64,000 nt of DNA from Syntrophorhabdales bacterium (GCA_035541455.1 DATKNH010000046.1:8290-72289), one strand, 5' to 3'. Shown: positions 5,473 through 39,465, numbered from the stretch's first letter. Notes: a model not told the origin generated them from the letters alone. Numbers and translations are program-made.

Positions 5473-6135
5473 TTGTGTAATACTATTTGTGTGAGCAGGC
5501 AGCAAACCGCGGGGAAACCGGTCCTCAAGACTGGCAAGCCACCGAACCGCAAAGAACGTCGGAAAGAACTGCAGGCAACAGTGCACAGGCCTGATACTGT
5601 CGTTCCGCAATCAACATCGAGCCTCTCTGCAAAAACAATCTTCACATCTCCTCTGTTCTGGGTAGTCCTTGTGGTAGCGATTGGAAGCCTCATGTTTATG
5701 GACTATCCCAGAGTGTCAATTCATCCTGGAAAAAGCGTGCGGCCGGGTCAACCCTTCGAAATTCCCTTTGTGCTTAAGAATGAGGGCTACATGCCCATCG
5801 ATGACATCCGTTATTCTTTATCGATGGAAAATATCCAATTCGGGCAGGGCAGCACCTTGCCCCGCGCATACTCCGGGGTAAATGGAACCAGCATATCGCG
5901 GCTCACCCGTGGGGAATCCTCCACAATCCTTTTGAATCCCTTCATCGATCTGTTGAAGCAGAGCTTTGGCATCGTTCTGCCTCCGAAGGCAGTAACGTCG
6001 GCTGAGATTTCCATAGACTTTTCGTATCGGCCATACCTGATACCTTACACCTTCAGCAAGCATCTCCGATTCACGACAAAACTGAACGACGCAGGCACAG
6101 ACTACGTGTGGTCAGCGTCTGGCAATCAGAAATAA
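5473..6135 (+). CDS. Hypothetical membrane-anchored protein (start uncertain; the listed start is TTG)
   Basis: 220 aa ORF with a basic N-terminus, one TM-like segment (LFWVVLVVAIGSLMF), and a beta-rich extracytoplasmic-looking domain. A rho-independent terminator follows. No family recognised. Confidence 0.5.
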   Translation: MCNTICVSRQQTAGKPVLKTGKPPNRKERRKELQATVHRPDTVVPQSTSSLSAKTIFTSPLFWVVLVVAIGSLMFMDYPRVSIHPGKSVRPGQPFEIPFVLKNEGYMPIDDIRYSLSMENIQFGQGSTLPRAYSGVNGTSISRLTRGESSTILLNPFIDLLKQSFGIVLPPKAVTSAEISIDFSYRPYLIPYTFSKHLRFTTKLNDAGTDYVWSASGNQK

Positions 6136-7299: not shown

Positions 7300-9396
7300 T
7301 TACAGCTTGAACAGCAGGTCCGCATAACTGGGTACCGGCCACATATCCTCGGGAACGAGCATTTCTAACGCGTCGATATCTGCGCGCAGGGCCTGTATTG
7401 CTGTGACCACATTATCCCGGTAGCTTTCTGCCTTCTTCACCGTATTCGTAATGCCCTGCGCCTTCGCGACCGCTGCTTCAAGCCTGCCCAACGTCCTGTA
7501 AGAGGACTCCAGCAGCGACCCTATCTTCTCCAGAAGATCCTCCTGTACCGACGCCATGGCCGATGCTGATTTGAAGCTTTCGGCGGAGTCGGCGAGGAAA
7601 GTTGCATATTCGATCACTGCAGGTATGAACTGCTTCTTCACCATGTCGATTGCTGCCAGTGCTTCTATATTGATCTGCTTCGCATAATGGTCAACATAGA
7701 TGTCGTAACGCGAATGGAGTTCTTTGCGCGACAGGACTCCGTACTTATCAAACAGCTTGAGTGCCTTGTCCGTAACGAACGCTTTTAACGCGTCAACGGA
7801 GTTGGCTACGTTGGGAAGATTCCGCTTTTTCGCCTCTGCCATCCATTCTTCCGCATAGTTATTTCCATTGAAGATCACGCGGCTGTGCTTCTTGTAGATC
7901 TCTTTGATGATCGCCGCTGCTTCGGTGTTCTTGTTCTTGGCCTTCTCCAGCCTGGTGGCAATTTCGTCAAAGGCTTCTGCCGCGATGGTGTTCAACGCCA
8001 CATTCGGCCCTGAAATCGACTGTGCCGAGCCGACGGTCCTGAACTCGAACTTGTTACCGGTGAATGCGAACGGCGAGGTCCTGTTGCGGTCGGTGTTGTC
8101 CTTGGGGATCGCGGGAAGAGTGTCCACGCCGACCTTAACGAACTGTCTGCCTCTTGAGGAAATTTTTTGGCCTTTTGAAATCTTATCCAGAATGTCGGTC
8201 AGATCCTCTCCCATGAAAATGGATATAATGGCCGGAGGCGCCTCGTTCGCTCCAAGGCGGTGATCGTTGCCCGCATGCGCACAGGTAGCGCGCAGGATAT
8301 CCGCGTGCGTATCCACTGCCTTGATCAGTGCGCTCACAAACAGCAGAAATTGCACATTTTCTGCGGGCGTATGGCCTGGTTCCAGTAAATTGATGCCGTC
8401 GTCCGTTGAGAGCGACCAGTTGTTATGCTTTCCCGAACCATTGATGCCGGCATACGGTTTTTCGTGTAACAGGCAGACCAGGTCATGACGGAGCGCGACC
8501 TTCTGCATAGTCTCCATAACCAGCTGGTTGTGATCCGTGGCAACGTTGGTGGTGGCAAAAACCGGTGCCATTTCGTACTGCGCCGGTGCAACTTCGTTGT
8601 GCTGGGTCTTGGAAGTGATGCCCATCTTCCACAATTCGGTGTTGAGGTCCCGCATATAATCGGAGATCCTGTCTTTGATGGCGCCGAAGTACTGGTCCTC
8701 CAACTCCTGCCCCTTTGGCGCGGGCGCGCCGAAGATCGTCCGACCAGTGAGCATAAGATCGAGCCGCTCCAGATAAAATTTCTTGTCGACAAGAAAGTAC
8801 TCCTGTTCCGGACCAACAGTAGACGTTACTCTCATGGAAGTGGTGTTGCCGAGAGCCCTGAGCACGCGTAGCGCCTGTTTTGACGCGGCTGCCATGGACC
8901 GCAGCAGTGGTGTTTTTTTGTCGAGCGCTTCGCCGTTGTAAGAGTAAAAGGCGGTGGGGATTGTAAAGGTGACATTGCCGCTTTCGTCGGTCTTGAGGAA
9001 TGCGGGTGACGTGCAATCCCACGCGGTATATCCCCTGGCTTCGAACGTGGCGCGCAAACCGCCGCTGGGAAAAGAGGATGCGTCGGGCTCGCCCTGGATC
9101 AACTGCTTGCCGGAAAACTCCAGAATCACGCCTCCGTCGGCGGTTGGAGATATGAAGGAATCGTGCTTCTCGGCGGTTATCCCGGTGAGCGGCTGGAACC
9201 AATGGGTATAGTGGGTCGCCCCTTTCTCAATCGCCCAATCCTTCATGGCGTTCGCAACCACGTCGGCAACATCGGGGCGCAGCGGCGTGCCCTTTTCAAT
9301 CGTTTCCTTCAGAGCCTTGTAAATCTCCTTGGGCAACCGCTCCTTCATCACCTTATCGTTAAAAACGTTGGAACCAAAGACTTCTGTCAACTCCAT
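7300..9396 (-). CDS. glnN: Glutamine synthetase type III
   Basis: 698 aa. The length and N-terminus ([30 protein letters not shown]...[11 protein letters not shown]) are characteristic of GSIII. The internal [10 protein letters not shown] matches the GS ATP-binding region. Confidence 0.9.
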
Positions 9397-9678
9397 GATT
9401 TTCTCCTTTTCACATAAATATACTAATGCCTACGCACATGGCTTTAGCCTGTATGCATCACCCGTCAAATCTATGTGAACTTCTTTGTTCGATATCCTTG
9501 AATCCAGTGTGGACGCTGAAGGAAGACGCACGTCACTGTGCGCCCCATAGTCTAATGTATTTCAAAAACTTTTACAAGTGCGTAAAGCTGTCCTGCCCGT
9601 GGTGCAATTGAAAGCTCCGTCCAAGCCTGAATCAAGAATACATCGCAGCGGACTGACTAATCACGCCGAGGCGAGTTT

Positions 9679-9797: not shown

Positions 9798-12428
9798 TTA
9801 GTCTTCCCATTCTTCAAGCGATGCTTCGGCCATCTTCCCTGTCAGCACGGCCAGCTTCACCGCTCTTATGGTGCGGTACACCTCTGCAGGCTGCCGCTTC
9901 ACACCATCAATCATCAGCAGATCCTCGTCGATCGAGATGCCGAAGAGCTGCTCATTTTCCTGCAGGTAGGGTAAGATAAGCTGCCAGTCTTCCTCCGAGA
10001 AATCACGGAACTCGCCGCCGTTGAGCTGTTCCGGCACGAGTGTGCGATGCGGGTCACGCACGAAAATAGCACCACCGGACGCAAGAGAGAAAAGGTTAGA
10101 ACCCGGATAGGGCGTTGACAGCGCGGTTACATTCCCGTCGTCATCCATGGTCAAACCATTGAGCACCACAAAACCCCCACCGTTGTGCGGGTCACCGGCC
10201 ATGAAAGATTCGGCCAGAAAGTCGAGCACTGTGCCGTTGATCACAACGCGTGGTTTGCCTGCAGCATTGATCAAAGGCCTTCCTGCGGCGTTCCCCAGCA
10301 CATAGACTTCACCGCCTTTGGCGCCGTACATGAAAGTCTGCCCCACGTCGCCGTGCACCACCAGCTTTCCGCTCTTGAGAATCTGGCCGAGCTGGTCCTG
10401 GGCATTACCGTGGACGTGAATCTCAAGGCCGTCTATGCCGGAAGCGAGGTAGTCACCTGTAGCGCCGTAGGCGTCGATGCGCACACCTCGTGTATCCGGG
10501 CCGAGTGAACAACCGAGAAAACGCTGCCCCTTGTGACCGAACGCAATGAAGCGTTTCCAACCCAGTGCATAGGCATCCGTCACCAGACGCGAGTGGCAGT
10601 CGTCCCCCTCCGCGGCAAACGCTTTTACATCAACGACGAGTACTTCTTCACCACGCTTTGGCTTACGGAGCTTCTCTCGAGTGGCGTAATCTATTCTCAC
10701 AAAATTGCTGGTCTTGCGCGCGTCGATAGCTGGAATCGCTCTGAAAATCTCATCAAGGCTTGTCATAATCATCTGGACAATAGACCGGCGCCGCTTGCAG
10801 CCGATTGGATATCGACGGTCAAGAAGATGTGTCAGAACCTCGATGACTGTTGCTCTGAACTTATCAGATGAGGCCATGGACGAAAGGTGTTGGAGCGCCA
10901 CGCGTACCTGCTCATAGTCCCATGCGACAAACTTCTCGCTCAGAAATGCAAAGACCCACTGGGCATTACCTTTCTTCACCAGCTCTTCGATTTCCTGTCG
11001 CACGGCTGCATCAAGCGCGCACGAACTCAGACCGTTACGGAAGTCATAAGGCTCCCGTTCTTTCGGTACATCGATCACACGGCCGAACTTGTCCGTGCAC
11101 GTCAGCGCGTTCCCGTTTCCTTTCGGGTCGACCGTGAAGATAAAGGCTCCGCCGTCTGTGTAGCTACCGCCACGGGCGTTCCAGTACTTGTCCGCGACCG
11201 TGCCGAACCGGGGATCTTCAGCTGCCAGACTGTCGAGCGTTGCGTCGATGGCCTGCTTCTCCGAGCAGATAAGTCCTATCTGGAAATCACCCTTCTGCAG
11301 CGCGAAGACCTGCGGCCTCAGCATCGCCGTATCGGTGATGCCTATCAGCTGAAACTTTTTCTCCTTCGGCAGCGTGCGGGCAATAATGAAGAACCACGGT
11401 CCGTCGGGCGAGCCATGGATCTGGGTTGCCTGAATCTGTCGGTAGATGCGCTGCCTGTCCGGAGGAAGGTGGTCAAAATCCATCTCCGCAGTGGGGGCGA
11501 GTGATTCAATGATGTACTCGAGGGGATAGCCGTAGACGCGGTTGAGCAGGTCGAACACCTGGATGGAAACCTCGGTATCCGTCAGGAAGAGAGGGAATAT
11601 ATTCCGTTGCCGCAGATATTCAGTCACCGAATAGTAGTTGGCAAAGTCGCCGTTGTGCACGAGTGCCTCATCCAAACCGATAAAAGGGTGTGCCCCGCCC
11701 GGATGCCAGACGCGCCCCTTGGTCGGATAGCGCTGGTGCGCGATCCAGATGTGGGCTTTGAAGCCCTCGAGCTTGTAGTACTGCGCCACCTGCTCGGCAT
11801 ATCCAACGATCTTCAGGATCATCATGTTGCGGCCGTGCGAAAGCACAAAGGCCCGCTTCTCGCCCAGTGAACTGTAGTAGGTGTAGTTGAGCTGAAAGCT
11901 GTTCTGGTAGATGAACTCTTCTTCTGTCTTTTCCGCTGAGAGCGCAAGGAGGCCGCGCTCCTTCTGGAATCGTTCGAGCGCTTCGGGCTTAACCCTGACG
12001 AAGTAGCGCTTCACCGCTGGCGGCTTCATCTCCAGACCAGGGACATCGCGGTAGTCGTCAACCGTATCGAGGAAACCCTCGTGGTCGACACGGAACTGAG
12101 GCCGGATGAACCTTGCTTCCATCTCGGGAAGAGCCGTCTCATCCAGAAGCGATATCTGAATGCAGAAATCCTCGTCCAGCACTTTCTGGCTCACGCCCAG
12201 TTGGGTAGGATCGAGCCCTGCCGCGGCTATGCCGCCGCCCTTTCCATTCCCGCGATTGTGCATCTGGACGGATGGTTCAAAGATGTGGCGACCGCTAACC
12301 GGGATGCTGCACGCAAAACCGGTAACACCGCAACCACCCTCCTCAGCCTCCTTCTGGCCAACCGGAGGCGCGTACGCCCTCAGGTGAGCGCGCGCACTAA
12401 GTATCGCCTTGATCTCCGACTCTTTCAT
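9798..12428 (-). CDS. Glutamate synthase subunit: class II (Ntn) glutamine amidotransferase domain fused to a GXGXG (GltB C-terminal) domain
   Basis: 876 aa. The N-terminal region carries EEGGCGVTGFA...HNRGNGKGGGIA (Ntn-amidotransferase type). The C-terminal region carries GHKGQRFLG...DAYGATGDYLASG...IHVHGNAQDQLG...VVHGDVGQTFMYGAKGGEVYVLGNAAGRPLINA, which is the GXGXG beta-helix motif series. Confidence 0.8.
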   Translation of the reverse strand: MKESEIKAILSARAHLRAYAPPVGQKEAEEGGCGVTGFACSIPVSGRHIFEPSVQMHNRGNGKGGGIAAAGLDPTQLGVSQKVLDEDFCIQISLLDETALPEMEARFIRPQFRVDHEGFLDTVDDYRDVPGLEMKPPAVKRYFVRVKPEALERFQKERGLLALSAEKTEEEFIYQNSFQLNYTYYSSLGEKRAFVLSHGRNMMILKIVGYAEQVAQYYKLEGFKAHIWIAHQRYPTKGRVWHPGGAHPFIGLDEALVHNGDFANYYSVTEYLRQRNIFPLFLTDTEVSIQVFDLLNRVYGYPLEYIIESLAPTAEMDFDHLPPDRQRIYRQIQATQIHGSPDGPWFFIIARTLPKEKKFQLIGITDTAMLRPQVFALQKGDFQIGLICSEKQAIDATLDSLAAEDPRFGTVADKYWNARGGSYTDGGAFIFTVDPKGNGNALTCTDKFGRVIDVPKEREPYDFRNGLSSCALDAAVRQEIEELVKKGNAQWVFAFLSEKFVAWDYEQVRVALQHLSSMASSDKFRATVIEVLTHLLDRRYPIGCKRRRSIVQMIMTSLDEIFRAIPAIDARKTSNFVRIDYATREKLRKPKRGEEVLVVDVKAFAAEGDDCHSRLVTDAYALGWKRFIAFGHKGQRFLGCSLGPDTRGVRIDAYGATGDYLASGIDGLEIHVHGNAQDQLGQILKSGKLVVHGDVGQTFMYGAKGGEVYVLGNAAGRPLINAAGKPRVVINGTVLDFLAESFMAGDPHNGGGFVVLNGLTMDDDGNVTALSTPYPGSNLFSLASGGAIFVRDPHRTLVPEQLNGGEFRDFSEEDWQLILPYLQENEQLFGISIDEDLLMIDGVKRQPAEVYRTIRAVKLAVLTGKMAEASLEEWED

Positions 12429-12461
12429 GACCTCTTCCTTCTAGCCTTTATCCTTTTTCCT

Positions 12462-12520
12462 TTCGCCTCGTAACCCGTAACACTCTTGCACGTAGCCTGC
12501 AACCCGTAACCCGCAACGTG
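12462..12520 (-). repeat. Heptamer-repeat spacer (GTTRCGG units) between GOGAT genes
   Basis: The minus strand reads GTTGCGG GTTACGG GTTGCAG ...GTGTTACGG GTTACGA GGCGAAA. It also contains ACGAGGCGAA, which recurs at 577-586 (+). The 9-mer ACGAGGCGA is at 9688-9696 (+). Confidence 0.5.
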
Positions 12521-12526
12521 TATTTA

Positions 12527-14074
12527 TCAGTCTAACTCTCCCCTCACTTCTTCCTTCTTCATATAATCGATATGGACCAGAGCATCCATGCGGCCCGTGA
12601 GTTCCGTGATGCTCTTCATACCCAATCGCGCGAGTATCTTCCTGAACTGCTCACACCAGGCGAGGTACATATTGATGATCCTCTGTGTACCCCACTCCAC
12701 ATCCATCAAACCAGTCAGCTCTTCATCGGTTGTTGCAATGCCCCTTGCGCAGCCGCGTCCTGACTCACAGTGGTGGCAACGCAGGCACTCCAGCGCCACC
12801 ATATCTGCTGTGCCCAGGCAGACCCCGTCTGCTCCCAGCGCTATAATCTTTGCAGCGTCATACGCATTGCGAACACCGCCGGATGCGATAACGGTTATGC
12901 CGTCACGGATGCCTTCCGCCGCAAGGAACTTATGTACCTTCGGCACCGCATATTCGATAGGCATGGCGATGTTTTTCTTGGCGATATCGGGCGCCGCACC
13001 TGTTCCACCGTAACTTCCGTCCAGATGAATGATGTGCGCCCCCGCATAAAAGCTGCCGACAGCCACCATATCCACATCGGTCGGCGTAGAGACCTTGACC
13101 GAAACAAGGGTTCTCGGATTTATTGCCTTGATCCAGTCAACATGCTTCTTGTGATCCTCGACAGAGTAAACACTGTGGAAGGGGAAGGGTGAAAAAAGCG
13201 CGCTTCCGGTGACTGCTTCGCGCATCCTGGCGACAGCCGGCGTCACCTTGTCGCCGAGCAGGTGGCCGCCAAGGCCAGGTTTTGCGCCCTGCGCATACTT
13301 GAACTCGACAATGCGAACGCGCTGAATGGTCTCCTCCCTTACACCGAAAAGCCCTGTAGCCACTTGCGTAATGACGTGGTCGTCGTAAGGCTTGAGATCA
13401 TCGGGATAGCCCCCTTCGCCTGTGCAGCAGAAGGTGTCCAGTGCGGTCGCAGCACGGACCCGCGAGAGCATCGTTACAATGCTTACCGAGCCGAAGGACA
13501 TGCCGCCTAAGTAGAAAGGCACGGGAATAGTAACTCTTGGCCGCGCGTCATTCGAGCGATTCAGGTCGATGGCCAGAGAGATGTCTTTGTCCTTGATGGC
13601 CTTCGCCTTCGTACCGTTACCGTTAACGGGATAGAGCAGCCGCAATTTATCAAAACCTCCGCCCGAATCACCCGTCTTGTAGTTGATATCCTGGTGCGGC
13701 GTAAGGCCGGTCTCCGCCATATGCCACGTGCTGGCAAGCAGGTCAGCCGTCCAGCGCTTGTCGCCGAGCAGCTCAAATGAAGGATTACGCCGTATGCTAA
13801 TGGCAGCCACTGGGCAGCGGCTCACGCAGTAAAATGAATTCTTCTCACACCCGGGTCCGAGGCAGAGATGCTCTTTCGGGGTTCTCGGCTTTTTGGAGCC
13901 CTTAGAATAAACGCCATAGGGACATATTTCGATGCAGAGGCCGCAGTTGTTGCAGGAAGTGTCGATGGAAAGGAGATACTTGCCCAGGGCATAGCGAAAA
14001 CGTGACGGCGCTGGCTTTGCCTTCGGCAGCGTCGCGCTTTTCTTTCGTGGCTTGGTTGTTTTTGTTGCCTTCAT
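12527..14074 (-). CDS. Glutamate synthase FMN-binding (GltB domain 2) subunit with an N-terminal 2x[4Fe-4S] ferredoxin domain
   Basis: 515 aa. Cys clusters CNNCGLCIEICP and CVSRCP are present. The core QGAKPGLGGHLLGDKVTPAVARMR...FSPFPFHSVYSVEDHKKHVDWIKAINP...VSVKV and GGVRNAYDAAKIIALGADGV match the GltB FMN domain. Confidence 0.85.
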   Translation of the reverse strand: MKATKTTKPRKKSATLPKAKPAPSRFRYALGKYLLSIDTSCNNCGLCIEICPYGVYSKGSKKPRTPKEHLCLGPGCEKNSFYCVSRCPVAAISIRRNPSFELLGDKRWTADLLASTWHMAETGLTPHQDINYKTGDSGGGFDKLRLLYPVNGNGTKAKAIKDKDISLAIDLNRSNDARPRVTIPVPFYLGGMSFGSVSIVTMLSRVRAATALDTFCCTGEGGYPDDLKPYDDHVITQVATGLFGVREETIQRVRIVEFKYAQGAKPGLGGHLLGDKVTPAVARMREAVTGSALFSPFPFHSVYSVEDHKKHVDWIKAINPRTLVSVKVSTPTDVDMVAVGSFYAGAHIIHLDGSYGGTGAAPDIAKKNIAMPIEYAVPKVHKFLAAEGIRDGITVIASGGVRNAYDAAKIIALGADGVCLGTADMVALECLRCHHCESGRGCARGIATTDEELTGLMDVEWGTQRIINMYLAWCEQFRKILARLGMKSITELTGRMDALVHIDYMKKEEVRGELD

Positions 14075-14077
14075 GAC

Positions 14078-15472
14078 CTACTGTCCTCTGCTTCCCAGGC
14101 TTGCGAATTCGCGTTCCAGATCCTCGAAGAACATGGCGCGCCCCATTTCACCGCGAAGTCTTCTCACTTCACGCAACCCCATGGCGCCCATGACCTCAAG
14201 CAACTGGTTGTGCCAGCCCGCCATAAGGTTTTTCACACGGCGGCTACCCCAGCCCGGATCTACTTCCCCGAGTTCCACCGGGCACGCAACCCCCTGTGCG
14301 CAACGACGACAAACGCGGCACTCCATGGCCACCAGGAGCGGTATATCGCAGCTGACCGCATCCGCTCCGCAGATGATGACTTTTGCCATGTGCTCCGCCA
14401 TCGCGATGCCGCCTCCTGCAATGATCGTAATTTGATCTCTCAAACCCTTATCGACCAGGAATAGATGCGCCTCCTTCAAACGGTCCTTGATGAAGAGAGG
14501 CTCATCTGCTTCTTCCATGCCGAATTCATCGGCGACAATATGGATTATCTCCGCACCCTCGCGGGTCAGTTCTGCTATGCGAGCACCCGCGGTCGGCGTA
14601 AGCGGCATGCGAATGGCGACGAGGAGGTCCGGCTTCTGCTCCTTCAGTATCCGTTGCCATTCAAGAATGGCAGGGCTGTCCGGTATTTCTACGATCCGCA
14701 CCCGCTCAAGCAAATGACCGTCCAGGCGACGGCTGCCTGCGTCGGGGCCGCGGTCCAAGAGCAGGATTGTATTCGGGAGAAAGCCCTCGTAGATCGGGAG
14801 CCACTCAGATTCCTTTATCACGACAAATGTCCCCAACTCGGTTGCTGCCCGCAACAAAGCTCTTAATATGCGTTTCCTCGGGGGCGAAAAGGGAAGCAGG
14901 TCAAATATGAAAGGAACCGGTATTTCGACAAGGGGAGGGATCGGGTGAGCAGGCTGGCCCTGGTCATCGAACTGCAAGGCCATCATCTTTCTGCCGAGGT
15001 CGACCGTGGTGCTGATATATTCCCTGCCGTGGATTCCGTCGCGAGTCGGTCTCACAATCTCCGACATATCAGTCCACATGGCGTCAAAACCGGGTCCGGC
15101 GAAGAGTCCGCCGTATCCCGCGCCAGACACAGGAATTTTGCCTGTTTCAGCCTGCGCCCAGAGATTCCCAAGAATCTCTGGCGTCCAGTAATGGTCGCCG
15201 ATTGTGCGATAGGTCGGATTCACGCCCTTCTGGATCAGCCTGGCAGGGCAGTTCTGCACGCAGCGAAAGCAATCCTGGCAGGCGCTGTCCAGGGAATCGA
15301 GCATCTGGCGCTCGTCCAGCGAGCGCGTTCCGTACACATTGTAGACGCATTCCTTTTTCACACAGCGGGCGCACTTAAGGCATCCCTCTTCCCAGGCTAT
15401 CACGCCGGATCGCGTTACAGCCCTGAACCTGTTAGGCACAGACGCGGTGTGTATCTGATATTTCGGCGGCAT
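14078..15472 (-). CDS. Glutamate synthase-related Fe-S protein (degenerate paralog of the FMN subunit)
   Basis: 464 aa. Cys motifs CLKCARCVKKEC, CQDCFRCVQNCP and C-terminal CRVCRRCAQGVACP are present. The C-terminal ITIIAGGGIAMAEHMAKVIICGADAV parallels ITVIASGGVRNAYDAAKIIALGADGV of the neighbouring subunit, but the QGAKPG..GG substrate/FMN block is not seen. Confidence 0.65.
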   Translation of the reverse strand: MPPKYQIHTASVPNRFRAVTRSGVIAWEEGCLKCARCVKKECVYNVYGTRSLDERQMLDSLDSACQDCFRCVQNCPARLIQKGVNPTYRTIGDHYWTPEILGNLWAQAETGKIPVSGAGYGGLFAGPGFDAMWTDMSEIVRPTRDGIHGREYISTTVDLGRKMMALQFDDQGQPAHPIPPLVEIPVPFIFDLLPFSPPRKRILRALLRAATELGTFVVIKESEWLPIYEGFLPNTILLLDRGPDAGSRRLDGHLLERVRIVEIPDSPAILEWQRILKEQKPDLLVAIRMPLTPTAGARIAELTREGAEIIHIVADEFGMEEADEPLFIKDRLKEAHLFLVDKGLRDQITIIAGGGIAMAEHMAKVIICGADAVSCDIPLLVAMECRVCRRCAQGVACPVELGEVDPGWGSRRVKNLMAGWHNQLLEVMGAMGLREVRRLRGEMGRAMFFEDLEREFASLGSRGQ

Positions 15473-15488
15473 CGCGTGCTCCTTGCAT

Positions 15489-16412
15489 TCATAAAACAGG
15501 ACGCGGCAGGAGTTTCGCTCCTTCCACGATTTCTGCTACGGCCTCTTCCCATTCGATAGCCATGATGTGAACACCGTGAATCCCTTTGATCTCCCGCAGC
15601 TCAGCAATAGTTTCTACGCAGATTTTGAGACCCTCTTTTTTCTGATCTTTTGAGGGGACACCCTTGAGCCGGTCAATGATCTCCGCAGGAATATCTATAC
15701 CGGCCACGTTGTTTGCCATGTATTCCGCCATCCTTACGGACTTGAGCGGTGTTACACCGCCAAGAATATAGACCTTCGAGTCGACACCGAGATCCCTTAC
15801 CTGCTGCATCCACTCCTTGAAGTAAGGCAGGTTGTAGATGCACTGCGTCTGGATGAACTCGGCGCCCGCGCTAACTTTCTTCCCGAGCCGGCGTGCGCGG
15901 TATGAACGGGGGTCCGCAAAAGGATTCTCCACAGCCCCGATAAAGAGTTCCGGAGGCAGCGTCAGTTTGTCTCCGCCGAGGATGGTGCCCTCGTCCCTCA
16001 TCTGGCGCACAAGGTGAATGAACTGGGTTGAGTCAATGTCAAAGACGCCTTTTGCCTCCGGCTGGTTGCCGAAAGACTGGTGATCGCCTGAGAGACAGAG
16101 AATGTTTCTGATGCCCAGTGCTGACGCGCCGAGCACGTCTGATTGCAGGGCGATCCGGTTCCTGTCACGCGTCACCATCTGGAGCACCGGGTCGAGTCCC
16201 TCCTCTCTGAGGATAGCGCATGAAGCAAGACTCGATAAACGCACCACACCTGTCTGGTTATCCGTTACATTGACGCTGTCCACACAGTTTTTGAGCAGGT
16301 TTCCCTTTTTGCGCACCGCTTCGGGATCCGCCCCCTTGGGTGGCCCGCACTCGGCAGTGACGGCGAACTGGCCTGCAGCCAGTATTTTTCTAAGTCGGCT
16401 CTCCGGTTTCAA
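15489..16412 (-). CDS. metF: Methylenetetrahydrofolate reductase catalytic subunit (acetogen/anaerobe-type MetF)
   Basis: Carries FAVTAECGPPKGADP...VNVTDNQTGVVRLSS...VTRDRNRIALQSDVLGA..GIRNILCLSGDH. The preferred start is TTG at 16412, with GGAGGA 9 nt upstream and a TTGA overlap with the metV stop. The ATG at 16469 would overlap metV by 61 nt. Confidence 0.85.
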   Translation of the reverse strand: MKPESRLRKILAAGQFAVTAECGPPKGADPEAVRKKGNLLKNCVDSVNVTDNQTGVVRLSSLASCAILREEGLDPVLQMVTRDRNRIALQSDVLGASALGIRNILCLSGDHQSFGNQPEAKGVFDIDSTQFIHLVRQMRDEGTILGGDKLTLPPELFIGAVENPFADPRSYRARRLGKKVSAGAEFIQTQCIYNLPYFKEWMQQVRDLGVDSKVYILGGVTPLKSVRMAEYMANNVAGIDIPAEIIDRLKGVPSKDQKKEGLKICVETIAELREIKGIHGVHIMAIEWEEAVAEIVEGAKLLPRPVL

Positions 16413-17077
16413 TTTCTCTGATCCTCCCGCACGATTTTCCTCGGGCCCTTGCCCTCTTTCTTCGACCAATTGGCAGGTGGTTGCACAGAGCCCAGTTTAT
16501 CGAGACGATTGCTCTCTTCCAACCGCGTCACTATCAAGTGCCATGCGCACGGCGTCTCGGGATCAACCTCACAGTATCCTCCCTTTGAGCCGCCGCAAGG
16601 ACCATTGAACAGGCTCTTCGCGCAGCGCGTTATCGGACAGACATCTGCGAACCTGTCCAGCTTGCAATCGCCACAGGCCCGGCAGTTCTCAACCCACAGG
16701 CCCGCCTCCCGTGTCTGGCCGATGAAGGTCGTGTTGAGCGCCGGAACGATGTGGATCTTCGGAAAAATCTCGGCGATTGCCTGCACACCGGCGCCGCAGC
16801 CCAGGGAAAGAATCGCGTCACACTGATCGATCAATGCGGTGAGCTGGTCGATGAATTCATAGACACACTGACGATCGAGCGTAATTTCGCGTATCTCCAC
16901 ACGCCGCCCCTCTTTCTTCGCGTCCATGCGCAGCGCTGATGCAAGAAGAGCAACTTCCTTCTCTCCTCCCGAGGCGCATTCGGCAACACACGTACCACAG
17001 CCAACGATCAATAATTTCTTGTAAGGGGAGATGCTTTCCTTAATTTCCGGAAGAGGCTTTCTTTCTGCAGTAATCAT
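16409..17077 (-). CDS. metV: Methylenetetrahydrofolate reductase-associated Fe-S/zinc-ribbon subunit (MetV)
   Basis: 222 aa. The N-terminal LLIVGCGTCVAECASGG and C-terminal CRACGDCKLDRFADVCPITRCAKSLFNGPCGGSKGGYCEV are typical of the MTHFR C-terminal-domain protein encoded next to metF. Confidence 0.8.
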   Translation of the reverse strand: MITAERKPLPEIKESISPYKKLLIVGCGTCVAECASGGEKEVALLASALRMDAKKEGRRVEIREITLDRQCVYEFIDQLTALIDQCDAILSLGCGAGVQAIAEIFPKIHIVPALNTTFIGQTREAGLWVENCRACGDCKLDRFADVCPITRCAKSLFNGPCGGSKGGYCEVDPETPCAWHLIVTRLEESNRLDKLGSVQPPANWSKKEGKGPRKIVREDQRN

Positions 17078-17119
17078 ATACGACTCCTATGCTGCGCAAC
17101 TACATACTCACATGTCGTG

Positions 17120-17560
17120 TCACGGAGTGTTGCGCGCTGCTTCTTTCGTCTCTCTGGCATTGAGCGGTGATTGAGTCAGCCCCTTTTCCCTGCTGATCAG
17201 CATGCGGGCTATGTCATCAATGGTGTTCGGAAAAGGTGAGGAGGCATGGATCAGTTCAAAACGCTCAGGCTCGAGACCGATCTCTTCTATGAGCTTGCGG
17301 GCAAATTCCACTCTCTTTTTTGCCCTCGTATTGCCTTCCTTATAGCGGCAGGCTCCTACAGGGCACGTAACAAGATAGACTTTATCTGCTCCGGCCTCAA
17401 GGGCGCGCATCAGATGAAGTGACTCTATCCTACCTGAACAGGGAAGGGTAAAGAATTTTATCCGCGAGCCAAGCTCCTTTTCAAGAGCCCGCCGGTTCAC
17501 GTCCTGCTCAGGATCAAGCCGCTGACAGAAAAAAATGGCGAAGTTGAATTCCTTTTCCAT
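17120..17560 (-). CDS. mvhD: MvhD/FlpD-like [2Fe-2S] hydrogenase iron-sulfur subunit
   Basis: 146 aa. IFFCQRL...FTLPCSGRIESLHLMRALEAGADKVYLVTCPVGACRYKEGN matches the methyl-viologen-reducing hydrogenase delta-subunit family. Confidence 0.8.
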   Translation of the reverse strand: MEKEFNFAIFFCQRLDPEQDVNRRALEKELGSRIKFFTLPCSGRIESLHLMRALEAGADKVYLVTCPVGACRYKEGNTRAKKRVEFARKLIEEIGLEPERFELIHASSPFPNTIDDIARMLISREKGLTQSPLNARETKEAARNTP

Positions 17561-17579
17561 AGGTATCCTAACGCACGGG

Positions 17580-17606
17580 AAAAAAGGGGCGCCCGATGGA
17601 CGCCCC
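17580..17606 (-). terminator. Intrinsic terminator-like hairpin 19 nt upstream of the mvhD start codon
   Basis: The minus strand reads GGGGCGUCC-auc-GGGCGCCCC (9 bp stem including one G.U) followed by UUUUUU. It lies downstream of the amidotransferase stop (17677) and immediately before the mvhD RBS. Confidence 0.6.
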
Positions 17607-17641
17607 TGTCGTTTGCGTGCACGCCTTCGTGCCGAAGCGTT

Positions 17642-18578: not shown

Positions 18579-20072
18579 CTACATGTCAAAGTACAGATGG
18601 AATTCGTAGGGATGCGGCCGCAAGCGGATCGGGTCTATCTCGTTCTCCCTCTTATATTCGACCCACACATCGATCACATCCTGTGTAAAGACGTTGCCCC
18701 TGAGCAGGAACTCATGATCCTTCTCCAGTGCACCGATTGCGGCTTCCAGGGAGCCGGGCACTGTTGGAATCTTTGCAAATTCTTCCGGATCCATGTGATA
18801 GGTGTCTACGTCAGTCGGTTTTCCAGGATCTATTTTGTTTATTATACCGTCAACACAGGCCATCATGATGGCAGGGAACGCGAGATAAGGGTTGCAGGTG
18901 CAGTCCGGCGGCCTGAATTCAAGCCGTTTAGCCTTCGGGTTGTCCGAATACATCGGAATTCTGACAGCGGCCGAGCGATTACGTGCCGAGTAGACCAGGT
19001 TGACCGGCGCTTCGTATCCCGGCACGAGTCTCTTGTATGAGTTTGTAGTCGGAGCACAGAAGGCAAGCAGGGCGGACGCGTGTTTCAGAAGGCCCCCAAT
19101 CGCATATTTGCCCAGTTTGCTGATGCCCGCATATCCAGCTGCGTCGTAGAAGATATTGGTACCTTTATTCCAGAGTGAGATGTGGGTGTGCATACCTGAG
19201 CCGTTGTCACCAAAGAGAGGCTTGGGCATGAAAGTCGCCACCATATTATTCTTTTTAGACACGTTCTTCACGATATACTTGTACATGAGACACTGATCTG
19301 CCATTTTAACCAGAGGACCGAATTTCATGTCGATCTCACACTGCCCGGCAGTTGCAACTTCGTGGTGATGCACTTCGACCTTTATCCCCGCCTTGATCAT
19401 AGTCAGGATAATTTTGCTCCTCAGGTCCTGGAGCGAGTCATGCGGCGGCACAGGGAAGTAACCCTCTTTGTAGCGAGGCTTATACCCGAGGTTCGGCTTT
19501 TCGTCGCGGCCCGAATTCCATTCGCCTTCGATGGAATCGATGAAGTAGTAGCCCGCATTCTCCGTCTGATCGAAGCGGATATCGTCAAAGATGAAAAACT
19601 CCTGCTCCGGACCGAAGAAACTCTGATCGGCAAAACCAGTTGTCTTCAGGAACTCTTCTGCTTTTTTTGCAACGTAGCGCGGGTCGCGGGTGTAGGGCTT
19701 CTTGGTAATCGGATCGTAAATGTCACACAAGACACTGAGCGTGGGCACCTCACAGACCGGATCGACCACAGCGGTAGTCGGGTCGGGCAGCAGGATCATG
19801 TCTGACTCGTTGATTTTCTGAAAACCCCTGATCGAGGACCCGTCAAAGCCGATCCCCTCTTCCCAGATGGACTGTACGGGATCATCGATCTCGGTCAATT
19901 CGGATGCTGGAATAGAAAAATGTTGCCACAGCCCGGGCAGATCATTGAACTTCAAGTCAACGATCTCGATCTTATTATCCTTTATCAGCTTCCCCACATT
20001 CTGTAGATCTTTTCCGGTTATGCCGCCATTCCAACGTATTGTCTTGTTCTTTTTTTCCGGGTTTTTGTCCAT
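18579..20072 (-). CDS. glnA: Glutamine synthetase type I
   Basis: 497 aa. Carries [43 protein letters not shown] and [13 protein letters not shown], with AAVRIP in the C-terminal part. Confidence 0.9.
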
Positions 20073-20185
20073 GGCTCCTCCTTAAAGTGTATGATCACAC
20101 TGTAACGACCCTACGTATTTGTGTGAAGTCGCGCCTCTCCTCTTGTGGGGGCGGACAAGCGCGTGTTTCTACACTAGTCCTGTCT

Positions 20186-20199
20186 GAACGTCGCTGTTC
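20186..20199 (-). promoter_or_regulatory. glnA leader hairpin with hexaloop AGCGAC
   Basis: The minus strand reads GAAC-AGCGAC-GUUC. The 11-mer GAACAGCGACG is shared exactly with the amtB leader (22020-22030). Confidence 0.35.
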
Positions 20200-20242
20200 G
20201 GAACGATAATAAGGAGTCCCTCGGAGTCGGTGAGGGGAAGCT

Positions 20243-20258
20243 GGTACGCCAATGTACC
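20243..20258 (-). promoter_or_regulatory. glnA leader hairpin with hexaloop AUUGGC
   Basis: The minus strand reads GGUAC-AUUGGC-GUACC (5 bp stem, hexaloop with A at position 1 and G at position 4). Confidence 0.35.
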
Positions 20259-20399
20259 GAAATACAAACTATACTTACACAGAACATTCCTAAATTTCAA
20301 GTGATAAGAGTAAACATCGGGCCTAGCTCTCCGGGCATCTAGGGCTTTTCGTTCTAGTGCCCGCGGGCGAATGACCCGATGTCGCGATAGGCGCACTTC

Positions 20400-20741
20400 C
20401 TATCCTATGGCTGTGCCTCCCTTCTCTCCTGTCCTGATGCGGATACACTCTTCGAGCGGCAGTACGAAAACCTTACCGTCGCCGATCTCACCCGTTCTGC
20501 CTCCGTTCAGGATAGCATTGATGGTGGACTCCACAAAATTATCATTTACTGCGATGAGGAGTTGCACCTTGCGCAACAGATTGCCCATCTCTTTAACGCC
20601 CCGGTACACTTCGGTGATACCCATCTGGCGTCCGTGGCCAAGCACCTCGCTGACCGTGATGAGATTTACCTCTGCTTTGTAGAGTTCCTGCTTCACGGCC
20701 TCCAGCCTATCCGGTTTTATGATAGCAATAATCAGTTTCAT
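20400..20741 (-). CDS. glnK: Nitrogen regulatory protein P-II (GlnK-type, encoded downstream of amtB)
   Basis: 113 aa from MKLIIAIIKPDRLEAVKQEL. The T-loop region is GHGRQMGITEVYRG and the C-terminus is GDGKVFVLPLEECIRIRTGEKG. The longer ORF start at 20780 would overlap amtB. Confidence 0.9.
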   Translation of the reverse strand: MKLIIAIIKPDRLEAVKQELYKAEVNLITVSEVLGHGRQMGITEVYRGVKEMGNLLRKVQLLIAVNDNFVESTINAILNGGRTGEIGDGKVFVLPLEECIRIRTGEKGGTAIG

Positions 20742-20751
20742 ACCCTTCCCC

Positions 20752-21981
20752 CTATTCAAGTATAGTGTAAGCGTGTTCATGGTGCTGTGTCAGGTCGAGT
20801 CCCATTATCTCGTCCTTCTCTTGTACCCTCATGCCCATGATCCAGTCAACAACCTTGTAAATAATCATGGTGCCAACAAAACTGTAGGCCAGCGTAATTG
20901 CCACTGCAAGCAACTGTATAAGGAACTGCTTAGGATTGCCGAAAAAGAGACCGTCAGCACCATCCGGGTTGATAAGCTTGCTCGCAAAAAGCCCTGTTGC
21001 CAGCGCTCCCCAGATGCCGCCGACACAGTGCACACCGAACGCGTCCAGAGAATCGTCGTATCCGAGCTTCGGCTTAACCACTGCTACGGCTATGAAGCAG
21101 ATCACACTCACAAAGATGCCGATGATGATCGCCGACATCGGCCCCACAAAGCCGGCGGCGGGCGTAATGGCAACAAGCCCTCCGACCGCGCCGGTTGCGG
21201 TACCGAAGATGGTCGGTTTTCCGTTCGTGATCCACTCAATGACCGCCCACGTCAACCCGGCAGTTGCGGCGGCCGTATTAGTCACGACGAAGGCATTTAC
21301 TGCCAGACCGTTCGCCGCCAGTGCGCTGCCCGCATTGAAGCCGAACCAGCCAAACCACAAAAGCGCTGTGCCGAGAACCGTATGGGGCAGATTGTGCGGA
21401 GGAACCGGGGCTTTGTCGTACCCCTTTCTCTTGCCTATAAAGAGCGCGGTTCCCAAGGCGGCGATGCCCGCATTGATGTGCACGACCGTACCGCCTGCAA
21501 AATCAAGCGCGCCAAGCTCCTTGAGCCAGCCGCCAACACCCCAGACCCAATGGGCAACAGGATCATAGATGAAGGTCGCCCAGAGCAAGGTGAAGAGGAG
21601 GAATGCCGAAAACTTCATTCTCTCCGCAAACGCCCCGATGATGAGGGCTGGCGTGATGACAGCGAACATTGCCTGAAAGATCATGAAGGCCGTGTGTGGT
21701 ATGGTGGGAGCGTAGTCCTTGAACGCATCTGCACCGACTCCCGCAAGCCCCACCCATTGGAGGCCTCCCCAAAACCCTTTACCCGGTGCGAACGAAAGAC
21801 TGTAGCCGAAGAGCACCCACTGGAGACTGAGGACACAGAGAATCGTAAAACATTGCATCAGTACACCCAGCACATTCTTTCGGCGTACCATGCCTCCGTA
21901 AAAAAAGGCCAGTCCCGGGGTCATGAGCATTACCAGGCCTGTAGAGATGAGAACCCATGCCGTATCACCTGCATTAATCAT
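20752..21981 (-). CDS. amtB: Ammonium transporter
   Basis: 409 aa. Carries AWVLISTGLVMLMTPGLAFFYGGMVR, DFAGGTVVHINAGIAAL, LLWFGWFGFNAGSA and DDSLDAFGVHCVGGIWG. Confidence 0.92.
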   Translation of the reverse strand: MINAGDTAWVLISTGLVMLMTPGLAFFYGGMVRRKNVLGVLMQCFTILCVLSLQWVLFGYSLSFAPGKGFWGGLQWVGLAGVGADAFKDYAPTIPHTAFMIFQAMFAVITPALIIGAFAERMKFSAFLLFTLLWATFIYDPVAHWVWGVGGWLKELGALDFAGGTVVHINAGIAALGTALFIGKRKGYDKAPVPPHNLPHTVLGTALLWFGWFGFNAGSALAANGLAVNAFVVTNTAAATAGLTWAVIEWITNGKPTIFGTATGAVGGLVAITPAAGFVGPMSAIIIGIFVSVICFIAVAVVKPKLGYDDSLDAFGVHCVGGIWGALATGLFASKLINPDGADGLFFGNPKQFLIQLLAVAITLAYSFVGTMIIYKVVDWIMGMRVQEKDEIMGLDLTQHHEHAYTILE

Positions 21982-22017
21982 GATTGTTCCTCCTTCCCAT
22001 TCCCTTGAAATAAAGAA

Positions 22018-22050
22018 GGCGTCGCTGTTCCAGCGTGGAACAGAGACGCC
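22018..22050 (-). terminator. Long hairpin with a U-rich tail 36 nt upstream of the amtB start (attenuator-like)
   Basis: The minus strand reads GGCGUC-u-CUGUUCCA-cgc-UGGAACAG-c-GACGCC followed by UUCUUUAUUUC. Confidence 0.4.
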
Positions 22051-22067
22051 TTCGTCTCACCCCTTGC

Positions 22068-22100
22068 AATAAAAATGGCGCTCTCGTGAGAAAGCGCCAT
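22068..22100 (-). terminator. Rho-independent terminator between the two amt paralogs
   Basis: The minus strand reads AUGGCGCU-uucucacgag-AGCGCCAU followed by UUUUUAUU. Confidence 0.55.
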
Positions 22101-22239
22101 CGATGGCTTACACTTCTTCGTGCAGACCCAGTCTCTGGGTAACTCTATTTACAAGTAAACGCGCTGCCCTTTTGGTAACCATCCCGCCAACTCCCCACTG
22201 CCCACTAGTTTACGTCCGCTCAGCCCTCACGTTTGACTA

Positions 22240-22276: not shown

Positions 22277-23506
22277 CTATTCTAACAGGGTATACGCGTG
22301 TTCATGATGCTGGGTTAGGTCAAGCCCCATAATCTCCTCTCGATCAGGCACCCTGACCTTTACCAGCACGTTCACAAATTTCATGATAAGGTAGGTCACG
22401 ACGAGGCTGTAGACCGTAACCACTGCCACAGCCGTGAACTGCACGAGGAGCTGGCGGGGATTGCCGTACAGTAATCCGTCGGCACCTGCGGGATTAATTG
22501 CCTTCGACGCGAAAAGCCCCACAGCAAGTGTACCAAGCATGCCACCAACACCGTGCACGCCAAAAGCGTCGAGGGAATCATCGTAACCAAGACGCGGCTT
22601 TATCTCGGCAACAGCAATGAAGCAGACAACGCTTGCCGCGCACCCTATCGCAGACGCGGCTCCTGCGGTGACGAAGCCGGATGCGGGAGTGATGGTCGCA
22701 AGACCTGCTATTGAGCCGGTAATGGTGCCGAATATAGTCGGTTTCCCATTAAAAACCCACTCAAGGAGTGCCCATGTGGCACCCGCGCTCGCTGCTGCGG
22801 TGTGTGTCACGAGAAAGGCGTGCACCGCCAATTCATTTGCGGCCAGTGCGCTGCCTGCATTGAAGCCGAACCAGCCGAACCACAGGAGCGCTGTGCCGAG
22901 AACCGTAAAGGGAAGGTTGTGGGGCGGCACAGGCTTATTTTCGTACCCCTTTCTCCTCCCGATCATGAGCGCGGTCACGAGAGCAGCGATACCTGCGTTG
23001 ATGTGGACGACCGAGCCTCCTGCGAAATCGAGCACACCCAGCTCCTTCAACCAGCCTCCAGCACCCCAGACCCAGTGGCAAACCGGGTCATACACAAAGG
23101 TGGCCCAGAGTACCGTAAAAAGCAAGAACGCCGAAAATTTCATTCGTTCGGCAAAGGCACCGATGATGAGAGCAGGTGTAATGATAGCGAACATGGCCTG
23201 GAAAAGCATGAACAGCTCATGCGGAATCGTAGCTGCGTAATCTGCGTAAGGCTTGAAGCCGACACCGTTCAAACCGAACCAGCTCAAACTGCCGAAGAAG
23301 CCTTTTGATGGCGCAAATGAAAGGCTGTAGCCGAATAGAATCCATTGCAGCGACAATATGCACAGCACGGTAAAGCACTGCATCAGAATGCCAAGAATAT
23401 TCTTTCGCCGCACCATGCCGCCGTAGAAAAAGGCAAGTCCCGGGGTCATGAGCATGACGAGCCCTGTACAGACGAGTACCCACGCGGTATCACCGGTATT
23501 GATCAT
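22277..23506 (-). CDS. amt: Ammonium transporter, second paralog
   Basis: 409 aa, about three-quarters identical by eye to 20752-21981 (the same motif set: DFAGGSVVHINAGIAAL, LLWFGWFGFNAGSA, DDSLDAFGVHGVGG). Confidence 0.92.
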   Translation of the reverse strand: MINTGDTAWVLVCTGLVMLMTPGLAFFYGGMVRRKNILGILMQCFTVLCILSLQWILFGYSLSFAPSKGFFGSLSWFGLNGVGFKPYADYAATIPHELFMLFQAMFAIITPALIIGAFAERMKFSAFLLFTVLWATFVYDPVCHWVWGAGGWLKELGVLDFAGGSVVHINAGIAALVTALMIGRRKGYENKPVPPHNLPFTVLGTALLWFGWFGFNAGSALAANELAVHAFLVTHTAAASAGATWALLEWVFNGKPTIFGTITGSIAGLATITPASGFVTAGAASAIGCAASVVCFIAVAEIKPRLGYDDSLDAFGVHGVGGMLGTLAVGLFASKAINPAGADGLLYGNPRQLLVQFTAVAVVTVYSLVVTYLIMKFVNVLVKVRVPDREEIMGLDLTQHHEHAYTLLE

Positions 23507-23600
23507 GATTCTCCTCCTCCCGAAGTAGTGGAAAGAACTGCTTCGCGCCGCCCGTCATTCCCGTAACGAAAGACGCGTCATGCTGCAGCGTGGAATAAAT

Positions 23601-23630
23601 AAAAAAAGGGCGTCCTCGTAAAGAACGCCC
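23601..23630 (-). terminator. Intrinsic terminator inside the amt2 5' leader
   Basis: The minus strand reads GGGCGUUCU-uuacg-AGGACGCCC (9 bp stem, one G.U) followed by seven U. It lies about 95 nt upstream of the amt2 ATG and downstream of the promoter candidate at 23681-23709. Confidence 0.6.
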
Positions 23631-23639
23631 TTGGTCTCT

Positions 23640-39299: not shown

Positions 39300-39465
39300 A
39301 GAAACAATGTCTAAATCCCAATTATCGAAATCCTAAACAATATCAAATCTTCAATGATCTGAACTTATAGACAGGCGCCCTTGCGTCCGTGTTTTGGGAA
39401 TTGGACACTTGATATTGTTTAGACATTGGATATTCGATATTGGAAATTGGGCGCTTGCTCATAAT
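39300..39465. repeat. AT-rich palindromic (MITE/REP-like) intergenic element, copy A
   Basis: The left arm is aacaatgtctaaatcccaattatcgaaatcctaaacaatatcaa. The right arm is ttgatattgtttagacattggatattcgatattggaaattggg, an imperfect reverse complement. The GC-rich centre is related to copy B at 49478-49620. Confidence 0.6.

Follow-up and report, generated by a model that had tools for sequence, protein, structure and literature searches.

Five leaders of nitrogen-assimilation genes in the 64-kb window (the whole stretch of Syntrophorhabdales DNA that was analyzed, GCA_035541455.1 DATKNH010000046.1:8290-72289) carry short hexaloop hairpins that are real and conserved, beyond chance. Judged from their sequences, these hairpins are most likely binding sites for a protein of the ANTAR family. 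The genes downstream are likely to make up a nitrogen-assimilation regulon that is controlled after transcription start by such an RNA-binding protein, through both canonical and variant leaders. The ANTAR reading had been put forward in a preliminary description of the same DNA and is supported by the match to the published consensus, the overlap with terminators, conservation, a covariance model of published targets and the presence of an ANTAR gene in relatives. The antitermination regulon proposed with it held in part: canonical arrangements of hairpin and terminator were found at mvhD-GOGAT, amtB (in tandem) and amt2, but not at glnA and glnN, which have no terminator.

Hairpins and terminators in the nitrogen-gene leaders

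The gene names assigned earlier to glnA, P-II, the two amt genes, the type III GS gene and mvhD were confirmed by NCBIfam and Pfam (Table 1). At the protein level, the window's GlnA shares 95% identity with its counterpart in a Syntrophorhabdales MAG and 80-86% with those of about 25 other Syntrophorhabdales loci (related loci carry L numbers below). The bipartite promoter-like element upstream of the amtB leader has 30 matches in the relatives, 29 of them on the gene strand. A 75-aa ORF across the glnA leader (20169-20396) was dismissed as spurious, as it does not resemble the small ORF conserved in the relatives.

Table 1. Genes, hairpins and terminators of the five leaders, with positions in the window
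Feature	Position	Strand	Sequence or remark
glnN (type III GS)	7300-9396	minus	NCBIfam/Pfam
Archaeal-type glutamate synthase (GOGAT) parts	9798-15472	minus	same operon as mvhD and metF-like genes
mvhD	17120-17560	minus	first in operon, via metF-like genes to GOGAT parts
glnA	18579-20072	minus	glutamine amidotransferase gene next
P-II (glnK)	20400-20741	minus	
amtB	20752-21981	minus	
amt2 (second amt)	22277-23506	minus	
Promoter-like element, upstream of amtB leader	22150-22179	minus	GTTACC-N17-ACTTGTA, bipartite
glnN H1	9526-9542	minus	GCGCAC-AGUGAC-GUGCGU, extendable to 9546-9523
glnN middle hairpin, between H1 and H3	9523-9495	minus	unrelated to glnA H2
glnN H3	9477-9490	minus	GAAC-AAAGAA-GUUC
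mvhD-metF-GOGAT leader P1	17619-17632	minus	GCAC-GAAGGC-GUGC
mvhD P2	17599-17610	minus	GAC-AGGGGC-GUC; loop and 3' arm are the terminator 5' arm
mvhD intrinsic terminator	17579-17607	minus	stem 17607-17585, 10 bp, U6; -27 kcal/mol, z -3.7
glnA H1	20243-20258	minus	GGUAC-AUUGGC-GUACC; A1 and G4; near transcript 5' end
glnA H2	20218-20236	minus	CCCUC-[ACCGACUCC]-GAGGG; loop 8-10 nt, first six bases A-Y-Y-G-A-S
glnA H3	20186-20199	minus	GAAC-AGCGAC-GUUC; A1 and G4
amtB P1	22109-22124	minus	UGCAC-GAAGAA-GUGUA
amtB P2	22096-22107	minus	GCC-AUCGAU-GGC; overlaps T1 5' arm
amtB terminator T1	22066-22101	minus	stem 22101-22074, 12 bp, U-run
amtB hairpin B (second attenuator hexaloop)	22043-22058	minus	GAGAC-GAAGGC-GUCUC; loop and 3' arm are the T2 5' arm
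amtB terminator T2	22005-22053	minus	stem 22053-22015, 16 bp, UUUAUUU; GAACAGCGACG in 3' arm; -29.7 kcal/mol, z -7
amt2 P1	23640-23657	minus	CUACAC-GUUGAC-GUGUAG
amt2 candidate P2	23624-23635	minus	ACC-AAGGGC-GUU; one C-U mismatch; overlaps terminator 5' arm; weak, 7.0 bits
amt2 intrinsic terminator	23599-23632	minus	stem 23632-23606

Hairpins of the form YAC-RNNGNN-GUR number nine in the five minus-strand leaders (glnN, mvhD-metF-GOGAT, glnA, amtB-glnK and amt2). The window was scanned for R-N-N-G-N-N hexaloops closed by AC/GU on stems of four or more pairs, using 60 dinucleotide shuffles as the control. The scan returned 21 AC-RNNGNN-GT hairpins, compared with 7.1 ± 2.8 in the shuffles, and nine of these are sense-strand hairpins within the leaders, a space that amounts to about 1.3% of the searched strand-positions. 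On the scale of the window, the motif is therefore above the shuffle background and concentrated in nitrogen leaders. Hexaloop hairpins with any closing pair were not enriched (381 in the window against 350 ± 17 in the shuffles), so the specificity of the motif comes from the closing AC/GU pairs.

The five sequences listed in the preliminary description were all recovered on the minus strand at their given coordinates. Four of them are hairpins, namely GGTAC-ATTGGC-GTACC (20258-20243) and GAAC-AGCGAC-GTTC (20199-20186) of glnA, GCGCAC-AGTGAC-GTGCGT (9542-9526) of glnN and CTACAC-GTTGAC-GTGTAG (23657-23640) of amt2. The 11-mer GAACAGCGACG of amtB is also present (22030-22020) but forms no hairpin; it is the 3' arm of terminator T2, and the closest relative does not share it. 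Hairpins that had been overlooked lie in the leaders of amtB (22124-22109, 22107-22096 and 22058-22043), glnN (9490-9477), mvhD (17632-17619) and glnA (20236-20218). One loop had been said to start with G; G1 is present in four P1-type loops. By free energy, loops that start with G and end with C (GAAGGC, GTTGAC) are predicted to fold as tetraloops. A1 is found in H1 and H3 of both glnA and glnN and in P2 of amtB, amt2 and mvhD, and G4 is found in every hairpin of the window leaders and is invariant in the relatives. Walshe et al. reported that G4 makes the only base-specific contact, that A1 contacts nothing and that one hexaloop is the minimal site. An invariant G4 with a variable position 1 in the relatives is explained by these contacts.

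ANTAR targets were defined by Ramesh et al. 2012 (PMC3369931) as two hairpins (P1 and P2) of at least 3 bp, with A1 and G4 in the hexaloops and with P2 overlapping a terminator. In the window, such an overlap between a weak 3-bp hexaloop hairpin and the 5' arm of a terminator is present at mvhD, amtB T1, amtB T2 and amt2, and the amtB leader consists of two attenuators in tandem. Folded alone, the leader RNAs take the form of P1 plus terminator (-24 to -30 kcal/mol, z -3.7 to -7). The P2 hairpins, that of amt2 included, did not fold unaided in free-energy prediction. P2 and the terminator are thus predicted to be mutually exclusive structures in the canonical leaders. In eutP, P2 likewise needs the protein to hold it (Walshe et al.), and tetraloop-closed loops are thought to be rejected by EutV. 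The linker between P1 and P2 measures 8 nt at mvhD, 4 nt at amt2 and 1-2 nt at amtB (3-6 nt in the relatives). EutV linkers are 5-12 nt long, and linkers of 3 or 14 nt impair EutV (PMC3369931).

Covariation was checked in orthologous leaders, and compensatory changes were found in both alternative structures. The antiterminator hairpins of 12 amtB leaders (P1, P2 and B) are 94% paired, compared with 23-56% when the partner is slid, and the T1 and T2 stems are 87% paired, with seven pairs changed on both sides. In the relatives, P1 of amtB reads AACAC-AUYGAU-GUGUU (98% paired, one compensatory outer pair) and P2 in most cases reads AAC-ANYGGC-GUU, 3-6 nt past P1. The hairpin of the second attenuator is 98% paired, its outer pair changing from G-C to A-U in four sequences. 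In L007 this attenuator has a hexaloop pair, GGAC-GAAGGC-GUCC and GGGC-AAGGGU-GCCU, one per T2 arm. The mvhD leader is kept in 10 relatives behind a TTGACA-N17-TAAACT promoter, with P1 as GGCAC-AGAGGG-GTGTC and P2 as GAC-NNGGRC-GTC. The two hairpins are 98.7% paired; position 4 of P2 is always G, and position 1 may be A, G, C or T. P2 is degenerate in the mvhD leader of the closest relative. At amt2, P1 of L078 (UUACAC/GUGUAA) has a compensatory outer pair.

The three-hairpin module of glnA and glnN

In glnA and glnN the hairpins occupy the very 5' end of the mRNA, with 30-190 nt between them and the start codon, and the ribosome-binding site is therefore not covered. The hexaloops are 43 nt apart in glnA, where a distance of about 45 nt had been given, and about 50 nt apart in glnN, each time with a further hairpin in between. 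In glnN, the 3' arm of H3 and the base of a long hairpin overlap; this long hairpin ends beside the ribosome-binding site. In L005 and L006, H3 is followed after only about 30 nt by the glnA start codon. Terminator scanning and folding found neither a terminator nor an alternative pairing overlapping H3 in the glnA and glnN leaders, so that antitermination is unsupported at these two genes.

The glnA set of three hairpins is common to 13 relatives, in which it follows directly on a promoter-like ACTTG(T/A)A element and all three loops begin A-N-N-G. The leader structure is 95.6% paired, compared with 23-47% when the partner is slid. In H1, four of the six pairs have changed on both sides (GGTAC/GTACC, ATGCAC/GTGCAT, CTACAC/GTGTAG, CTGCAC/GTGTAG). 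The stem of H3 is invariant and its loop variable, with an invariant G4. Covariation is silent on H2 and H3 in the glnA leaders, since their stems (CCCTC...GAGGG and GAAC...GTTC) never vary there. A copy of the module upstream of the second amt gene of L028 has GUCCUC/GAGGAC as H2, with two compensatory pairs. The module is absent from the glnN leaders of L028 and L009, and the comparative support for the glnN hairpins is therefore limited to near-identical strains.

Other roles for the glnA module were considered and rejected. As a candidate anti-Shine-Dalgarno element, its best duplex with the ribosome-binding region was no better than those of shuffles in nine leaders. A kissing loop between H1 and H2 could form in the window, L078, L082 and L002, and is lost in L028, L033 and L009. 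H2 is followed by a U-rich tract that is not adjacent to it, and the terminator scan makes no call of a weak terminator there.

Relation to known ANTAR targets and regulators

The published consensus is SYAC-AAHGRH-GUDB for P1 and RRGY-AAHGDV-GCYY for P2 (Ramesh 2012, PMC3369931). The window hairpins fit that of P1, the closing AC/GU pairs included. H1 of glnA is nearly identical to P1 of Enterococcus faecalis eutG (GUGUAC-AAUGGC-GUAUAC), with one loop base different, while H3 shares its stem with the published Desulfotomaculum (D. reducens) hit 032, GAAC-AACGAU-GUUC.

A covariance model (R1) was built solely from 31 published ANTAR targets. In the window, five of its 23 matches fall in leaders; those in the glnN (9541-9477), amtB and mvhD leaders rank 2-4 (9.9-10.9 bits, E about 1 each), and no match is reported for the glnA leader. 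The calculated chance of three of the top four matches falling in 1.3% of the space is about 1e-5. In 28 related loci, 35 of the 38 R1 matches are on the gene strand and most are just upstream of genes, the best being the second attenuator of amtB in L007 (23.2 bits, E 0.003). As a positive control, R1 was applied to loci of other phyla and scored 11-16 bits right next to their ANTAR genes. Rfam searches at the gathering threshold and at E<=10 gave no ANTAR or other relevant family, just chance sRNA and terminator matches. As no ANTAR match was obtained in Rfam at any threshold, that test is uninformative either way.

The closest known systems are those of EutV (E. faecalis eut), NasR (Klebsiella nasF) and AmiR (Pseudomonas amiE) (PMC3369931). 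Like the leaders of the window, their targets have two A1/G4 hexaloops, the P1 closing pairs AC/GU and a weak P2 with its 3' half inside an intrinsic terminator, and targets of this type occur several per genome, ahead of P-II, Amt, GS and GOGAT genes. The window differs from them in its linkers, which span 1-8 nt in the canonical leaders and 43-50 nt in glnA and glnN, where a hairpin is inserted, in several loops that start with G, in P2 stems of GAC/GUC or AAC/GUU rather than GGC/GCC, and in the glnA and glnN leaders without a terminator. The likely regulator also differs, with GAF-GAF in place of REC, NIT or AmiC-partner domains.

A precedent from Geobacter had been invoked in the preliminary description. 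The GnfK/GnfR system governs nitrogen-fixation antitermination in Geobacter sulfurreducens (Ueki and Lovley 2010, PMC2995071); it likewise belongs to the Desulfobacterota neighborhood, with terminators in the glnK and amtB leaders. The ANTAR protein GnfR binds just upstream of the terminator and overlapping it (PMC2995071), a layout comparable to that of the window. Its site CAGGCAAGGGCGCC can be read as GGC-AAGGGC-GCC, with the same loop as amt2 P2 (AAGGGC). GnfK phosphorylates GnfR, a response regulator, whereas the Syntrophorhabdales relatives have GAF-GAF-ANTAR proteins, and, unlike in Geobacter, the promoters of the window are not of the RpoN type and no nif genes of the window are involved. 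The conserved GnfR site CAGGCAANGGCGCC had no match with up to two mismatches in any leader and was not enriched overall (39 matches versus 29 ± 5). One intergenic match with two mismatches (39374-39387) follows nuoN and precedes a HAD hydrolase gene, has no U-run and was set aside as irrelevant.

The regulons predicted in Candidatus Desulforudis and Desulfotomaculum (Ramesh 2012, Table S2, PMC3369931) comprise the same gene sets, GS/glutamine amidotransferase/glutamate synthase and Amt/P-II. These Firmicutes belong to another phylum, and their regulators are response regulators encoded beside the targets. Hexaloops without a terminator, as in glnA and glnN, occur in the mycobacterial ANTAR RNAs, where they lie over ribosome-binding sites, and in the EutX/Rli55 sRNA, which sequesters EutV. 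The glnA and glnN hairpins differ from these in belonging to an mRNA leader rather than to a separate sRNA and in leaving the ribosome-binding site uncovered.

As had been stated, the window contains no ANTAR gene: tblastn searches with an Rv1626 probe and the L161 protein were negative. None was found in about 9 kb to its left either. In L082, L161 and L162, a GAF-GAF-ANTAR protein (PF03861) is encoded beside the amt-glnK-glnA cluster. The L082 contig (GlnA 84% identical) opens within a GAF-ANTAR gene, whose end lies about 2 kb upstream of amt-glnK-glnA (Pfam E 5e-21). L161 (GlnA 80.5%) has the order 407-aa GAF-GAF-ANTAR, sigma-like gene, 294-aa unknown gene, amt-PII-amt-PII-small ORF-glnA, and on the same contig P1/P2/terminator leaders precede the 294-aa unknown gene and amt. 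The L161 ANTAR gene contains an in-frame TAG that is probably an error, as L162 has Leu at that position. Two close ANTAR homologs on 0.4-kb contigs of bulk metagenome assemblies are taxonomically uninformative. A REC-ANTAR probe found none in the Syntrophorhabdales loci. By analogy with the relatives, the regulator is probably a GAF-GAF-ANTAR protein like that beside their cluster. With such proteins in the relatives and the Geobacter site string absent, it does not appear to be a response regulator of the GnfR type.

Alternative explanations and biological meaning

From these features we infer that a protein binds, that a signal is sensed, which way the regulation runs and what happens at glnA and glnN. 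The mvhD-GOGAT, amtB-glnK and amt2 mRNAs would begin with a stable P1, a weak 3-bp P2 and a strong intrinsic terminator. If the protein is absent, the terminator would form and transcription would stop. When nitrogen is limiting, an active ANTAR dimer would bind the hexaloops through the flipped-out G4 and hold P2; the terminator would then be blocked and the genes read through. The GAF domains of the regulator may sense a metabolite or a partner protein. At glnA and glnN, two P1-type hexaloops at the 5' end of the mRNA, with a third hairpin between them, would most likely be bound by the same protein with another action.

That action may be on mRNA stability or translation, or it may be a buffering of the free regulator. 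As a tentative proposal, the module of glnA, glnN and the amt gene of one relative could be a terminator-independent ANTAR device with three A-N-N-G loops on one platform. It is rather unlikely that ANTAR attenuation is confined to the amt and mvhD leaders and that the module is instead a protein-independent 5' stabilizer or the site of another factor, its ANTAR likeness being incidental. Hairpins at the 5' terminus are a known means of mRNA stabilization, and a sister clade carries a different hairpin at the corresponding 5' position. The lack of a terminator or of any alternative pairing over H3 and the silence of R1 on the glnA leader would also agree with such a role, as would the spacer of 43-50 nt, which exceeds the tolerance of EutV; a linker longer by 20 nt abolishes EutV antitermination (Walshe et al.). 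A single hexaloop is, however, enough for ANTAR binding, and A1-N-N-G4 is kept in all three loops across 13 relatives. H1 and H3 closely resemble the eutG and D. reducens P1 hairpins, glnA H1 of L009 is nearly the same as amt2 P1 of the window, and in L028 the same type of module precedes an amt gene, all of which argues for an ANTAR site.

Several observations count against the ANTAR reading as a whole: E values of about 1 for each R1 match in the window, G-start loops capable of forming tetraloops, the short linkers of amtB (1-2 nt) and amt2 (4 nt), the mismatch in amt2 P2, the degenerate mvhD P2 of the closest relative, the lack of any ANTAR match in Rfam and the 43-50 nt spacer of glnA and glnN, which also have no terminator. 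The leaders might serve a non-ANTAR RNA-binding regulator or protein-free attenuation depending on transcription speed or NusA, as the weak individual R1 scores and the lack of an ANTAR gene in the window or in about 9 kb to its left could suggest. This is improbable given that the consensus match extends to the closing pairs and the invariant G4, that no other Rfam family matches and that an ANTAR gene adjoins the cluster in relatives with the same leader motifs. Still less probable is a reading of the palindromes as DNA operators of a dimeric transcription factor at or just past the transcription start, with incidental RNA hairpins. H3 does read GAAC-N6-GTTC with invariant half-sites and a variable spacer, H1 of the window reads GTA-N8-TAC, and the sites are near promoter-like elements. 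Yet in H1, amtB P1 and hairpin B it is the pairing, through compensatory changes, that is preserved and not the half-site sequence. The loops lack symmetry, A1 and G4 being confined to the sense strand, the gene strand carries 35 of the 38 R1 matches, and the P2 hairpins lie inside terminator arms, far from promoters.

To our knowledge, a terminator-independent mode such as that proposed for the glnA and glnN module is undescribed for nitrogen ANTAR regulons. If the proposal is true, binding of the GAF-GAF-ANTAR protein to the module would control the stability or translation of GS mRNA, or would buffer the free regulator. The amtB tandem attenuators and the terminator-less module of the GS leaders may also serve as test cases for the revised "single hexaloop, successive binding" model of ANTAR action.

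ANTAR targets ahead of GS, Amt, P-II and GOGAT genes have been predicted in many bacteria since 2012 (PMC3369931), and the literature yielded no report of ANTAR control for Syntrophorhabdus. The regulon is therefore a known type of control in a new lineage, and the known picture of ANTAR regulation is left unchanged. It is compact: a single 17-kb stretch holds two GS genes, the operon of mvhD, metF and archaeal-type GOGAT, and two Amt genes together with GlnK. A GAF-GAF-ANTAR protein as the likely sensor makes the signal testable, perhaps 2-oxoglutarate or glutamine. The Syntrophorhabdales, poorly studied syntrophic degraders of aromatic compounds, would thus be added to the bacteria in which ANTAR antitermination governs ammonium assimilation.

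Promoter-like element and leader hairpins

A bipartite element, GTTACC-N17-ACTTGTA, precedes amt and glnA leaders in the window and in the related loci compared with it (L001-L162). Across 25 Syntrophorhabdales sources the element was matched 30 times, and 29 of these matches fall on the gene strand. Its two halves are spaced in a way that fits the -35 and -10 boxes of an alternative sigma factor. A sister clade (L003, L007, L008, L010-L012, L020, L086 and L116) has a different 5' hairpin in place of the three-hairpin module (H1, H2 and H3) of the glnA leader. This hairpin lies about 20 nt past ACTTGTA, ahead of the paired small ORF and glnA, and combines a covarying GCG/CGC-type stem with a loop of 10-13 nt containing UGACGUG.

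glnA H3 shares an identical 11-mer, GAACAGCGACG, with the 3' arm of T2, the second amtB-leader terminator. The T2 copy in the window has the closing C-G pair only. Relatives read GGNC-AAGGNC-GCCU at this site, which could possibly form a second hexaloop hairpin. The long hairpin of the glnN leader begins within the 3' arm of H3 and stops 1 base short of the ribosome-binding site, and may thereby couple H3 formation with translation. The GC-rich hairpin ACGGACGC-AAGG-GCGCCTGT resembles the Geobacter GnfR string, an ANTAR response-regulator site consensus, with two mismatches; it has neither a U-run nor a nitrogen context.

Coordinates of the features in the window and in related loci
Feature	Location	Strand	Remark
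GTTACC-N17-ACTTGTA	window 22150-22179	minus	ahead of amtB leader; motif matches in relatives
11-mer, glnA H3	window 20189-20199	minus
11-mer, amtB T2	window 22020-22030	minus
glnN-leader long hairpin	window 9413-9482	minus
GC-rich hairpin	window 39374-39387	minus	between nuoN and HAD hydrolase gene
mvhD-GOGAT operon	window 9798-17560	minus	led by attenuator 17632-17579
~85-aa ORF	L001 2535-2795; L007 ~5715-5975; L161 13242-13496; others		conserved, between leader and glnA
294-aa protein gene	L161 7886-8770; L162 5038-5928		full P1/P2/terminator leader ahead
In-frame TAG	L161 6317-6319		GAF-GAF-ANTAR gene

Associated genes

The ~85-aa ORF is kept ahead of glnA in many relatives; neither the window nor its closest relatives have it. 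Its product has no Pfam match and may be a small GS-associated protein. The 294-aa protein of L161 and L162 is likewise without a Pfam match and appears to be a member of the predicted regulon.

The gene for the 294-aa protein adjoins ANTAR and sigma-like genes. The single in-frame TAG in the L161 ANTAR gene, where L162 has a Leu codon, probably reflects a sequencing error or a pseudogene. In L082, L161, L162, L003, L116 and L091 the amt cluster has a small sigma-like gene upstream of it, whose product combines sigma-70 region 2 with a LuxR/region-4-like HTH.

The mvhD-GOGAT operon

Here parts of an archaeal-type glutamate synthase (FMN/4Fe-4S; GATase II with GXGXG) share an operon with mvhD, MTHFR and a metF C-terminal-domain protein. 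It is unusual for a flavin/MvhD module to be combined with GOGAT in this way.
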